29,069 nucleotides of DNA, from contig JAHQWL010000065.1 of the NCBI GenBank assembly GCA_029856155.1, positions 1 to 29,069 on the forward strand, read 5' to 3'. This DNA comes from Promethearchaeia archaeon. GTDB taxonomy: Archaea; Asgardarchaeota; Lokiarchaeia; Sigyniarchaeales; SOKP01. Below the pieces are notes generated by a model. It was given only the letters and a program-made list of their open reading frames with translations. It ran no database searches and was not told where the DNA came from. The translations under genes and the position numbers were made by a program. This document shows positions 19,579 through 28,982 of the stretch, one piece after another. The first letter of the stretch is position 1. The number at the start of each line of letters is the position of its first letter.

Positions 19579-21117
19579 TTATTCATTCTTTTTCTTTTCC
19601 ATAGATTTTCTAAATCTCTCCAAGAGTTTCCTCGGTGTAACAGTCGGTCTTTCATATCTTTTTAGTTTCGACTTAATACCAAAAAGATATTTTGCTATGT
19701 CTTTCAATTTTTCTAAATCATAGCGCATCATCATCGTAATAGTTTCCATCTGGGGAGAACCACCTCCATGTAATCCTGCTACTTGCATCACTCCTGCTAA
19801 ATCAGAAACTGCTAAATTCTCTATCCCCTTAAAACATCTAAGCATGTATTCTGGTTTAACTCGAGGATTTCGTTTTAAATATTTCATTGCCAACTCACCA
19901 ACCTCTTCATTATAAAAAGTCTCTTCATATGGTAAAGTTGCAATTAATCCTCCAGAAAGATCTGCTAATATTTTATATTCCTCATAAATCATCTCTCCTG
20001 CCAGTCTTCTCCCTGCATTTGTAAGTATCTCATCAGGTACTTGAGTACCGGAAGGTGCCTTTTCTGAATGTTTTGCACTTGACTCTCCAGCAGCGAACAC
20101 GAGTTCAGCAGTACCTATTATATGGGACAATTTATCTCTTGCATGAGAAGTCTTATCAATCCCATTATACTCTGCTACTAATGCAGCAGCACTCGCAATC
20201 ACTTCTGATACTGCTGGTTTACAACCTGTATAGCTATGTCTGTGATAATGAGCAAACATCAGTGCTAAAAATCCAGCATAGGGAGTTTGTCTAGGATCTG
20301 CATGCCCATTTAAGAATACTCGCTCATTTGGTACAAAAACATCGTCAAAAACGATGAAAGTTTCAACATCTCCCACTTCTAATCCTGGTGCGTCATAAAC
20401 TTTACTCTTTCTAAAATTAGCAGGTCGACAAAGTAATTTTACACCATCCCAATCAGTTGGTAATGCAAAAGCTACAGCATAATCTTTATCTTCAGGTCCC
20501 ATATAACGAACTGGAACAGCAATCATCTCATCAGCATATGCTGTATTTGTAATATTAAGTTTACAACCTCTCACAACAATACCATCATCTCTGGTTTCAA
20601 TTACTCTCAGATATTGATCGGGATCCTCCTGTTCATGAGGTCTCTTTAAACGATCTCCTTTTGCATCAGTTTGAGCACAACTAGCCACTAAATCGTTTTC
20701 TTGAAAAAATTCCATATATTTTTTAAATCGCTCATAATAGTCGGTTCCAAGTGATTGGTCCATTTCATAGGTTATTACTGAGAGCGCATTAAGTGAATCG
20801 ATACCCATACAACGTTGAATACAGCCACCCACACGATGACACAGAAGTCTTGTCATTAACTGTTTTTTGAGTAAATCATCCTTGCTTTGATGAATATGAG
20901 TAAATCGATTAATTTTCTTGCCGGTAAGATGGCTTGTTGCTGTACAGAGATCTTCCCATTCGGGCTCATGAACATGGTCAAAAGTTTCTTTTATGATTCT
21001 CATTCCTCCTCTTATACGCGGGTCATCTCTTCCAACCTTTTGATCGCCAATCCAAATGTTTGGCTTCAACTTTTTTAAATCTTCAACATATTGTTCATAT
21101 GTGCGAATTTTAATCAA
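19579..21117 (-). CDS. abfD: 4-hydroxybutyryl-CoA dehydratase / vinylacetyl-CoA isomerase
   Basis: Fe-S ligand motifs CIQRCMGID and HRHSYTGCK; QTDAKGDR; LHGGGSP. Confidence 0.85.
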   Translation of the reverse strand: MIKIRTYEQYVEDLKKLKPNIWIGDQKVGRDDPRIRGGMRIIKETFDHVHEPEWEDLCTATSHLTGKKINRFTHIHQSKDDLLKKQLMTRLLCHRVGGCIQRCMGIDSLNALSVITYEMDQSLGTDYYERFKKYMEFFQENDLVASCAQTDAKGDRLKRPHEQEDPDQYLRVIETRDDGIVVRGCKLNITNTAYADEMIAVPVRYMGPEDKDYAVAFALPTDWDGVKLLCRPANFRKSKVYDAPGLEVGDVETFIVFDDVFVPNERVFLNGHADPRQTPYAGFLALMFAHYHRHSYTGCKPAVSEVIASAAALVAEYNGIDKTSHARDKLSHIIGTAELVFAAGESSAKHSEKAPSGTQVPDEILTNAGRRLAGEMIYEEYKILADLSGGLIATLPYEETFYNEEVGELAMKYLKRNPRVKPEYMLRCFKGIENLAVSDLAGVMQVAGLHGGGSPQMETITMMMRYDLEKLKDIAKYLFGIKSKLKRYERPTVTPRKLLERFRKSMEKKKNE

Positions 21118-21369
21118 CTCTTAATAAACACTTTATATTTAAATTTAATACAATATACATAATCGAAAATTCGTTATAAATTAAACGACTAATTGAATAA
21201 ATTCTAGATTTTATAATTAATTACGCTGTTTCTGGACTTTTATTAATTTTAGATATCATAATCTTTAGTAAATTTTTAGATATTTTTAAAATGTATTATA
21301 ATTTGATATGTTTCGTTTAAATTATTGAAAAAAAGTAATATTATATTACATATTCAATACTCAGCTTTC

Positions 21370-21400
21370 AAAAAAAAAAAAAAATAAAAAAAAATAAAAA
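21370..21400 (-). terminator. Oligo-U tract, probable archaeal terminator
   Basis: ~31-nt near-pure A run on + strand, downstream of the putative ncRNA. Confidence 0.55.
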
Positions 21401-21510
21401 TCTTAATTGCTTTAGAAAACTCCATGATTCCTAAAAACTCAATAAACAGCCTATTTCCTGAACTTCTTCTATCACCTCTTTATTATTATTTTAAGGTGTC
21501 GACTTTCTTC

Positions 21511-21607
21511 AGGAGAAACGAATATATATAAGATGGAGAGCTCAACGGTCGAACTTCCGCCCGGATCGTCTCATTACTCTCCCGGGTGGATTCCCCTCAT
21601 TCCTCCC
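21511..21607 (-). ncRNA. Putative structured RNA with kink-turn and GNRA tetraloop, family unknown
   Basis: About 60% GC in 21535-21607; 12-bp terminal stem, 7-bp stem, AAU bulge with tandem GA/AG, GGAA loop; G-U pairs valid on minus strand only; starts ~30 nt after a TATA box. Confidence 0.7.
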
Positions 21608-21633
21608 TAATAATTAAATGGAACTTATTGCAA

Positions 21634-21686
21634 ATATAGTTTTTACTATGAAACTTTTTACAAAGTTCGAACAAAAAGAAAAGTTG
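21634..21686 (-). promoter_or_regulatory. BRE/TATA promoter with two abutting GAAC-N10-GTTC-like operators (copy 1)
   Basis: AAAAACTATAT (minus, 21644-21634); AAAC-N10-GTTC 21651-21668; GAAC-N10-GTTG 21669-21686; 34/39 identical to 28930-28968. Confidence 0.75.
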
Positions 21687-21716
21687 TAGAAGAAGTATTA
21701 TTTTGCAATATATTTT

Positions 21717-21750
21717 AAAAGGGTCATTATGCTTTTTGGAATGACCTTTT
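21717..21750 (-). terminator. Hairpin immediately after GTPase stop
   Basis: GGTCATT (21722-21728)/AATGACC (21740-21746) inverted repeat flanked by A and T runs. Confidence 0.4.
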
Positions 21751-21752
21751 TA

Positions 21753-22307
21753 TTATTCTGCAGATACTGTCTTGTGTTTATTATATATTTCATCAATAAT
21801 GGCATTAAACGCATCAATAACTCCATGACCCGTTTTAGCTGATGTTATAGAATACCCTAGGAAATTTCGTTTCCTCACTATTTCTTGAATTTTAAATTTA
21901 TCCAGTTTATATTCATCCACTAAATCAACTTTATTAGCAAAAACAACGATAGGGATATCTCCACAGAACTGTTTGATATCCTCATGCCAATATGAGATGT
22001 GGTTGAAACTTTCAGCACCAAGATCGTTTTCTTCGAGACTATACACAATTATAGCAGCGTTACTATTTTTAAAAAAAGAGGGTCGTGCAAAATTGAAATC
22101 ATCTTGCCCTGCGATATCCCAGAACATTAATCTGATTTTATCACCATCAATTTCTTTATCGTATATTGAGAATTGAGCTCCAATTGTTTTAATATAATCC
22201 TCAACAAATTCATTTTGAGTAAATTTTTGAATTAAAGAGGTTTTACCTACTCTTCCATCGCCTACTAATGTTATTTTAAATCTGAATTTTGACCTTGAAT
22301 CATTCAT
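21753..22307 (-). CDS. Ras-superfamily (Rab-like) small GTPase
   Basis: GDGRVGKT, TIGAQF, WDIAGQ, NKVD, SAK. Confidence 0.95.
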   Translation of the reverse strand: MNDSRSKFRFKITLVGDGRVGKTSLIQKFTQNEFVEDYIKTIGAQFSIYDKEIDGDKIRLMFWDIAGQDDFNFARPSFFKNSNAAIIVYSLEENDLGAESFNHISYWHEDIKQFCGDIPIVVFANKVDLVDEYKLDKFKIQEIVRKRNFLGYSITSAKTGHGVIDAFNAIIDEIYNKHKTVSAE

Positions 22308-28498: not shown

Positions 28499-28670
28499 TT
28501 AATTGATAAATTTAATAGCGTTTTACAATATTGGATCTATTTACTATTATAAGCTAATAGCTATTTTAAATCTAATGCAAAAAGCCTTATTTATGTTTGA
28601 AATTAATAAAAAATACTTATATCATGTTAAAGAAAATTTAAAAAAAAGAATAAGAAAAAAAATAGAATAA

Positions 28671-28757
28671 TTATAAGTCCTTAAATGTAAAGGAATATTT
28701 CTTTCGATTTAGGACATAATCAGAAAGGGTTGCTTCCATATCTTTTTTATTTGACAT
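28671..28757 (-). CDS. Putative 28-aa micro-protein MSNKKDMEATLSDYVLNRKKYSFTFKDL
   Basis: GGAGG SD 9 nt before ATG; followed by U-rich tract. Confidence 0.55.
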   Translation of the reverse strand: MSNKKDMEATLSDYVLNRKKYSFTFKDL

Positions 28758-28802
28758 TTTTATAATCCTCCAAAAAGTTTTTTTTTAAAATAATTAAAAT
28801 GA

Positions 28803-28880
28803 CTAATCTCGAATGACATCATGAGAAACTATGACATCATTCCTTATCTTGATAATTCGAGTCTGATTTATTTTTTTCAT
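28803..28880 (-). CDS. Putative 25-aa micro-protein MKKINQTRIIKIRNDVIVSHDVIRD
   Basis: GAGGT SD 8 nt before ATG; just downstream of promoter copy 2. Confidence 0.5.
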   Translation of the reverse strand: MKKINQTRIIKIRNDVIVSHDVIRD

Positions 28881-28929
28881 TTTTTTTTACCTCTTTGTTT
28901 TCTTAATTTTAATATGGATATGATTCAAT

Positions 28930-28982
28930 ATATAGTTTTTATTGCGGAACTTTATACAAAGTTCGAACTAAGAAGGAAGTTA
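28930..28982 (-). promoter_or_regulatory. BRE/TATA promoter with two abutting GAAC-N10-GTTC-like operators (copy 2)
   Basis: AAAAACTATAT (minus, 28940-28930); palindrome GAACTTT-ATAC-AAAGTTC 28947-28964; GAAC-N10-GTTA 28965-28982. Confidence 0.75.

Follow-up and report, generated by a model that had tools for sequence, protein, structure and literature searches.

The window, the whole 29,069-nucleotide stretch of DNA that we analyzed, contains a minus-strand unit between two protein-coding genes. The upstream gene lies on the same strand (22307-21753) and encodes a complete Ras-family small GTPase, with no in-frame TGA and a TAA stop; the downstream gene (21117-19579) encodes an HpaB/AbfD-type (abfD-like) enzyme. 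After the GTPase stop codon come a terminator-like hairpin and T-run, followed by a complete promoter module. An earlier note, made from the sequence alone, had proposed an unannotated minus-strand RNA with a consensus kink-turn hairpin at this position and had attributed the DNA to an Asgard host. Our analysis supports the RNA; the minus-strand letters from 21607 to 21511 read as the note quoted them, and related contigs are labeled Promethearchaeota MAGs, in line with the attribution. The unit comprises the following features:

21650 to 21672, minus strand: palindromic operator (GTTCGAAC TTTG TAAA AAGTTTC) of a shared promoter module, from comparison of module copies
21632 to 21644, minus strand: BRE/TATA (AAAAAC TATATTT), conserved in all variants, ending 23 nt before A21608
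21583 to 21608, minus strand: 5' segment AGGGAGGAAUGAGGG(G/C)A(A/G)UCCACCCG, invariant in the alignment except at two positions
21535 to 21582, minus strand: 48-nt kink-turn hairpin, from the MFE fold, with 16 of 16 modeled pairs kept in four variants
21511 to 21522, minus strand: 3' strand of the P1 helix (partner 21607-21596), 12 contiguous pairs, inside the window-specific insertion
about 21431 to 21525, minus strand: 95-nt insertion unique to this genome's version of the RNA, from the alignment, covered by contigs from RNA runs
21402 to 21430, minus strand: conserved 3' module GAAUCAUGGAGUUUUCUAAAGCAAUUAAG, aligning with the relatives' GAACCGUGGAGAUCUUUAAAGCAAUCAA
21370 to 21400, minus strand: oligo-T terminator (T5 A T9 A T15), read directly, with a T-run at the same place in all relatives

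The conserved core of ~75 nt, a purine-rich 5' segment followed by the hairpin, runs from UUAGGGAGG to CUCUCCAUAUUAUAU with a mean column identity of 96%. Its computed GC content is 0.587, against 0.22-0.25 in the flanks and 0.515 for the 97-mer from 21607 to 21511, which bears out the earlier description of a GC-rich core in AT-rich surroundings. The 5' segment also carries a second GGGAG..AAUGAG half-site and could possibly form a 3-bp mini-hairpin. Within the 95-nt insertion we found a CACCU/AGGUG hairpin and a Shine-Dalgarno (SD)-like GAGGUGAU; the genome holds no second copy of the insertion, and our searches returned no recognizable source for it. The consensus of the 3' module across variants is GAAYCRUGGAG...UAAAGCAAUYAA. 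Its UGGAG is able to pair with CUCCA of the kink-turn stem, an alternative that is present in the MFE fold of the version from one sister genome (G027). As a separate observation, the relatives' 3' module (aligned to 21402-21430, minus strand; L009:483-511) contains the palindromes AGAUCU and UUUAAA. An 18-24-codon frame (ME.FKAI..) that starts from the 3' module was not taken as coding because it runs into the terminator.

A shared promoter module and the predicted start site

The operator and promoter of the unit (21672-21634) are identical at 34 of 39 positions to a second site in the window (28968-28930) and to a third copy on contig C102. The module consists of the palindrome GAACTTyG..CrAAGTTC followed by AAAAAC-TATATAT, and it occurs in 39 of the 54 genomes of the genus, a single genome having as many as nine copies. 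From copy to copy, the two half-sites change together (TTTG..AAAG, TTCG..CGAA). What the module drives is varied: 23-26-aa micro-ORFs behind a conserved AU-rich leader, ~90-aa leaderless ORFs, and a histidine-kinase-like ORF. The module resembles a regulon, or a family of cassettes, of micro-peptide genes that spans the genus. We rejected the other module copies as diverged relatives of the RNA; their payloads are protein.

Leaderless members of the family have their ATG exactly 23 nt after the TATA core, and from this distance we infer that transcription of the RNA starts at A21608. The earlier note had given the unit a TATA promoter of its own and a 5' end near 21608. Both proposals agree with our results, since the BRE/TATA is conserved in all variants and the homology-based start falls on the same nucleotide.

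We note two features of the wider cassette family. At 28640-28968 of the window (minus strand) and at loci L075-L084 and L115-L127, the module usually drives an AU-rich leader and a 23-26-aa ORF ending in a T-run; the micro-peptides fall into types such as ..KxAGFxFQ.., ..GYWN.. and ..KVYNxGY.., and the ~90-aa leaderless type reads MSFKS...FSEFGESK.... Promoter/micro-ORF cassettes also often lie directly upstream of co-oriented Ras-like GTPase paralogues, within GTPase arrays (for example G071:C33:11936-12804, G031:C312:663-1508, G009:C38:2681-3639 and G065:C30:28668-32497).

The kink-turn hairpin and the outer helix

The hairpin has a 7-bp C stem toward its base (GGAGAGU/GCUCUCC; 21582-21576 with 21541-21535), an AAU bulge on the 5' strand (21575-21573), tandem G.A/A.G pairs (21572-21571 with 21543-21542), and a long NC stem toward the apex (21570-21559 with 21554-21544) capped by a GGAA loop (21558-21555). 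The C stem, the bulge and the GA/GA pairs, continued by G.U, A-U, C-G and G-C pairs, correspond to the kink-turn motif. Outside it, the 12 contiguous P1 pairs, 4 of them G-U, join GGGAGGAAUGAG to UUCGUUUCUCCU. All elements that had been drawn earlier (a 12-bp P1 with 4 G-U pairs, inner stem, AAU bulge, tandem GA and GGAA loop) are present, and the MFE structure gives this exact layout.

The minus strand of the 97-mer folds with an MFE of -35.5 kcal/mol (ViennaRNA; z -1.79; 10 of 200 shuffles fold equally well), and the 48-nt hairpin alone has a z-score of -1.76. These values, near -1.8, are modest. The plus strand folds worse than its own shuffles (z = +0.96); the fold is therefore strand-specific, as had been proposed. 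The bare kink-turn pattern is common in this 30%-GC genome: the strict form (7-bp stem, 3-nt bulge, GA/GA, 4 further pairs) has 71 matches, and a looser form has 450, compared with ~265 in shuffled sequence. Since the pattern is not rare in an AT-rich genome, the kink-turn carries weight only through its GC-rich, conserved and expressed context.

The outer helix is a different matter. Twelve contiguous P1 pairs were found in 0.6% of 5,000 shuffles of the downstream 137 nt, but the 3' strand lies inside the 95-nt insertion that is missing from all relatives. P1 is therefore specific to this genome and is not a conserved part of the RNA. The 5' end of the relatives' versions can pair instead with UCA-A-UCUUUCC beside the T-run, in a helix of at most 7 contiguous pairs, which is the chance expectation.

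This result bears on the proposal that the RNA has an H/ACA-like layout. An H/ACA-like pseudouridylation guide would use P1 as its lower stem, two 13-nt pocket strands, and the kink-turn stem on top. Such a stem-pocket-stem-kink-turn outline can be drawn in this genome, and its P1 is unlikely to arise by chance; yet P1 is absent from all relatives. H/ACA RNAs require an ACA ~14-15 nt from the pocket, and no variant has one at that spacing: the first ACA lies well downstream of P1 here, the relatives have none there either, and in neither the window nor the relatives are the stems followed by an ACA. Pf9-type H/ACA RNAs carry the bulged strand as the 3' strand, with the NC stem facing the pocket, which is the reverse of the polarity here. 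The RNA also has no match to an Rfam H/ACA family and no complementarity to the genome's own LSU rRNA. With its lower stem not conserved, we rejected this layout; an H/ACA guide is exceedingly improbable, and the sequence evidence refutes the reading as far as such evidence can.

Conservation and distribution

We searched for the RNA with BLAST and with a core covariance model (R1), the latter run over 54 genomes of the genus and 151 of the class. The RNA was found in 3 of the 54 genus genomes (this one and those of two further, closely related species, G005 and G027) and was absent from the other 51 and from the ~150 other class genomes searched. Weak covariance-model hits were chance look-alikes of the 5' segment, combining an SD with an AUG, and we discarded them as homologues. 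A pattern scan of metagenomes added one further variant (Ga0307444), one duplicate and one chance match. The suggestion of a new Asgard RNA class was too broad for this distribution.

In G005, G027 and the metagenome contig, conservation of the core and promoter stands at 92-96%, and the downstream sequence diverges; the parts conserved in the alignment are the promoter, core, 3' module and T-run. The Watson-Crick or G-U character of all 16 modeled pairs holds in each of the four variants. Four one-sided changes keep their pairs (G.U to A-U twice, C-G to U.G, and U.G to U-A), and none of the four hairpin variants shows a two-sided compensatory change. Shuffle controls were uninformative because no pair changed on both sides, and with no compensatory change among only four shallow variants, covariation lends no statistical support. 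Of the homologues and covariation that the earlier note had called for, the former exist and the latter amounts to zero two-sided changes. The pair-preserving changes fit the hairpin structure and are not statistical proof of it.

The AAU bulge and both GA dinucleotides are invariant in the four variants. The loop varies (GGAA, GGAUA, GAAAA), as does one unpaired hairpin position (U/A/G), so the GNRA loop described earlier stands for this genome, where it is GGAA, and not as a conserved feature. Two tiny overlapping ORFs that had been pointed out in the unit are likewise not conserved, and we rejected them as coding: two non-synonymous changes turn MRGIHPGE into MRAVHPGE, and the loop indel disrupts the second frame.

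Expression

A search of public sequencing runs with a 501-base query listed 24 runs, 20 of which contain part or all of it; two of these 20 are salt-marsh metatranscriptomes. Contigs from these two match the window without differences over 21409-21596 (X13) and 21425-21594 (X15). Across 21100-22000, the RNA contigs show zero cover of the flanking GTPase and abfD genes, which we take as a hint. A DNA contig (X1) spans 21409 to 22000, past 21596.

An Illumina adapter directly follows 21596 in X13, which indicates that cDNA molecules ended at this position. A cDNA end 12 nt inside the predicted start is the usual product of standard second-strand synthesis. On the T-tract side, X13 has 7 unaligned letters beyond 21409; this limit is uninformative on the 3' end because it coincides with the low-complexity break at the T-tract and is shared by the DNA contig. 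The contigs give neither strand nor exact ends, and the two RNA runs may stem from one sampling campaign. Minus-strand transcription, to which assembled contigs are blind, is what we infer. We regard the evidence for a discrete transcript, with the 95-nt insertion inside it and extending to the T-tract, as good but not conclusive.

Because the RNA contigs cover 21596-21409 and the T-tract lies at 21400-21370, the RNA should be ~210-240 nt long in this genome and not 97 nt; in the relatives it would be ~125 nt. The ~97-nt length with a terminator beside 21511 that had been proposed earlier does not agree with contigs that pass through 21511, and the nearest strong oligo-T lies ~110 nt beyond it.

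The same data speak to whether the RNA could instead have been processed from the 3' UTR of the Ras-like GTPase mRNA or be a cis-regulatory leader. In favor, every carrier of the RNA retains synteny with the GTPase gene. A terminator-like hairpin and T-run followed by a complete promoter module separate the unit from the GTPase stop, however, and the RNA contigs stop short of the GTPase gene. On the other side, the T-tract terminator closes the unit and the downstream gene differs between carriers. We regard both versions as highly improbable.

Comparison with known RNA families

No Rfam 15 family matched in the window at gathering thresholds, so the Rfam scan suggested in the earlier note placed the RNA in no known family. 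A permissive scan of 21200-21900 returned only the Pyrococcus C/D sRNA sR16, with a score of 18.5 bits (E 0.52) where the cut-off is 70. ARAGORN predicted no tRNA gene within the window. We also set aside both SRP RNA and RNase P RNA as candidates: RNase P RNA is on contig C47, and SRP RNA lies at other loci in the relatives. SSU rRNA, SRP RNA and an L7Ae gene were undetected in the assembly of this genome (G000), and SRP RNA and L7Ae are present in sister genomes. As a side observation, ARAGORN reported only 15 tRNAs in the 4.1 Mb of G000, where many GC-rich islands end in the T-arm-like GGGTTCRAATCCC; most of its tRNA genes are probably intron-interrupted.

Comparison with rRNA covered the LSU only, as SSU rRNA is absent from this assembly and from those of close relatives. 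Against its own LSU rRNA the RNA showed no similarity and no Watson-Crick complementarity of at least 9 nt, a length that shuffles usually reach (9-10 nt), so the rRNA complementarity that the earlier note had proposed looking for in the loop strands did not appear there. The searches run identified no RNA targets; a genome-wide duplexfold scan gave only unrealistic full-length duplexes and was dropped as uninformative. Searches of the genome with canonical C/D sRNA patterns found none for comparison.

The sR16 match raises the possibility of a degenerate box C/D-like guide, with AAUGAGG and UAAUGAGA as C and C', UUGA as D, and UCCACCC as a methylation guide acting with Nop5 and fibrillarin. 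Weak as it is, that match aligns the two AAUGAG motifs and UCCACCCG, and the kink-turn has the orientation of a C/D kink-turn. Its score is nonetheless far under the 70-bit gathering threshold. The candidate boxes AAUGAGG and UAAUGAGA lack a second UGA, no CUGA or D' lies at a 12-nt spacing, and the 23-nt spacer that would hold the second guide is itself a hairpin. Two of the ~12 "guide" positions differ between close relatives, at least 9 nt of Watson-Crick complementarity to the own LSU rRNA is missing, and the length is 125-240 nt instead of 50-70. Having rejected the box assignment on these grounds, we consider a C/D guide very unlikely.

Selenocysteine (Sec) decoding offers another comparison. 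The genome decodes Sec: it has a tRNA-Sec, four frhD/vhuD-type genes with 2 in-frame TGA each, and selD with 1. The Sec loci (C21:29673-30041, C98:54542-54910, C30:571-936, C11:27940-28305, C63:7561-8400 and C44:~153194) are of interest in themselves, as each Sec gene has an AUGA...GA/AA SECIS-like hairpin downstream. The four frhD elements begin at or next to the stop codon and have an AU-rich 9-bp upper stem and an 11-12-nt A-rich loop; that of selD has an AU-rich 7-bp upper stem and a 19-nt loop. The published model of Asgard eSECIS-like elements specifies an AUGA_GA core, an upper stem of 7-15 bp, and either a loop of 8-20 nt (type I) or a 4-12-nt bulge plus ministem (type II), with adenines in the apical loop (PMC11227280).

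Our RNA could thus be a SECIS-like element, as a stray or trans-acting copy in Sec decoding. It comes from a Sec-using organism and combines the AUGA...GA core with loop adenines, as in the Asgard elements of PMC11227280, and its upper stem has ~11 pairs with one mismatch and one bulge. The loop is only 4-5 nt, with no type II bulge, whereas the genome's own elements have loops of 11-12 nt (19 nt in selD) on AU-rich stems and the stem here is GC-rich and bulged. Nor does the location fit: no selenoprotein gene lies upstream, where the GTPase gene is, the HpaB/AbfD-like gene lies downstream, and the unit has its own promoter. We rejected the RNA as an eSECIS-like element on both loop and location, and a role in Sec decoding is extremely unlikely.

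The sister genomes G005, G027 and G006 encode L7Ae (121-125 bits). The gene was not found in this 97%-complete assembly, in which only L30e was detected. A precedent for L7Ae-bound RNAs of this kind comes from L7Ae RIP-seq in Sulfolobus acidocaldarius, where 6 sRNAs of unknown function were among 107 enriched RNAs (Daume et al. 2017, PMC5539422). We base the reading of the RNA as an L7Ae-stabilized RNP on this precedent, on the match of the kink-turn to the L7Ae consensus, and on the L7Ae genes of the sister genomes.

Discussion

We think it most likely that the minus-strand unit encodes a real small non-coding RNA, which is expressed, contains a kink-turn hairpin and has its own promoter. More fully, we read it as an independently transcribed, lineage-specific ncRNA of Promethearchaeota (Loki-type Asgard), with an operator promoter, a start near A21608, an end in the T-tract, and a putative L7Ae-bound kink-turn, and we give this full reading a probability of roughly 55%. 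The observations behind it are the sequence and the way it folds, its conservation in four variants, the homology of the promoter, and contigs from RNA libraries that are limited to the unit. The RNA is probably an orphan sRNA that is operator-regulated and L7Ae-bound.

The relatives show how the unit may have arisen. In a relative's DNA contig (X3), 26 other letters stand between 21217 and 21750 where the window has 532 bp, and in three further genomes (G064, whose GTPase is 90% identical, G065 and G008) the abfD-like gene begins ~110-130 nt after the GTPase gene. Judged from these loci, the ancestral order is a GTPase gene directly followed by abfD. Since X3, G064, G065 and G008 are without the unit, the RNA unit sits in a ~530-bp insertion or replacement confined to a small clade. 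We note that the interval of ~530 bp at 21217-21750 is replaced by 26-49 nt in the relatives (X3 contig, G064). The unit appears to be a recent gain, in which a structured RNA became the payload of a regulated promoter module in wide use.

This narrow distribution and the insertion site may also fit a young element without function. On such an account, a copy of the promoter module came to lie between the GTPase and abfD genes, where it produces a stable GC-rich transcript as a functionless by-product, the kink-turn being coincidental. The account draws strength from the RNA's presence in only 3 of ~200 genomes searched, the absence of the ~530-bp insertion from the closest other relatives, the multi-copy module with its varied payloads, the chance occurrence of kink-turn patterns, and the free rearrangement of the 3' half. 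It sits less well with sequence change that avoids breaking pairs within the unit, with a bulge and GA pairs that stay invariant while the loop and position 46 vary, or with a 58% GC island retained in three species in 22-25% GC surroundings; moreover, the RNA is abundant enough for metatranscriptome assembly, whereas the neighboring genes are not. We consider a functionless by-product unlikely, though we take it seriously.

If the full reading of an operator-regulated, L7Ae-bound ncRNA is correct, a working model for its function can be proposed. Transcription would begin near A21608 under the control of the palindromic operator and end in the T-tract at 21400-21370. L7Ae would then bind and fix the kink-turn, yielding a stable small RNP, and the RNA would act in trans as a regulator or scaffold, made whenever the operator regulon is switched on. 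A single CUCUCC strand could be contested by three GGAG-type strands (at the 5' end, in the kink-turn stem and in the 3' module), and L7Ae binding could select among the resulting conformers. In their MFE folds the G027 and G005 versions differ in pairing partners, and a protein-set conformational switch may be possible. Binding of L7Ae, action in trans and conformer switching are all predicted steps. Taken as a whole, the proposal would make the RNA an L7Ae-dependent riboregulator within a genus-wide operator regulon of micro-peptide and small-protein genes, recently evolved from a promoter cassette, in which L7Ae sets the conformer and the single-stranded segment that is exposed. We offer it as speculation that is, in all its parts together, quite unlikely to be right.

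Non-coding RNAs of Asgard archaea are little known, and the locus adds an uncatalogued, apparently expressed kink-turn RNA that is neither C/D nor H/ACA. Its reach is limited to three species and to a structure without covariation support; it is not a pan-Asgard RNA class and has no direct bearing on eukaryogenesis. Within these bounds it provides a small and tractable case of (i) the birth of an RNA gene, and (ii) a predicted role of L7Ae outside the classical guide RNPs.

Set beside known systems, the RNA shares with archaeal H/ACA sRNAs an L7Ae-type kink-turn in its upper part and, in this genome, an outer closing stem; it differs in lacking an ACA box, a conserved lower stem and an Rfam match, and in its opposite polarity. 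With the kink-turns of box C/D RNAs and the U4 snRNA 5' stem-loop it shares polarity (basal C stem, bulge on the 5' strand, apical NC stem), and the AAU-GA bulged strand matches that of the U4 5' stem-loop. Unlike a box C/D sRNA, it has no RUGAUGA/CUGA boxes, 12-nt guide spacing or C'/D' and showed no target in its own LSU rRNA, and unlike the U4 and C/D kink-turns its NC stem is a long closed hairpin with no link to splicing. The AUGA_GA core, apical-loop adenines and Sec-using host are common to it and Asgard eSECIS-like elements (Mariotti et al. 2016, PMC4989117; PMC11227280), whereas its loop is too short, its stem GC-rich and its promoter its own, unlike the genome's five SECIS elements. 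The L7Ae-bound sRNAs of Sulfolobus (PMC5539422) belong to another phylum and have no sequence relation to our RNA, which is confined to three species and whose L7Ae binding is predicted from sequence. In both cases, however, we see a small ncRNA with a consensus kink-turn (3-nt bulge, tandem G.A) that is neither C/D nor H/ACA, and the RNA described here adds an uncatalogued variant, restricted to one lineage, to a known kind of archaeal RNA.
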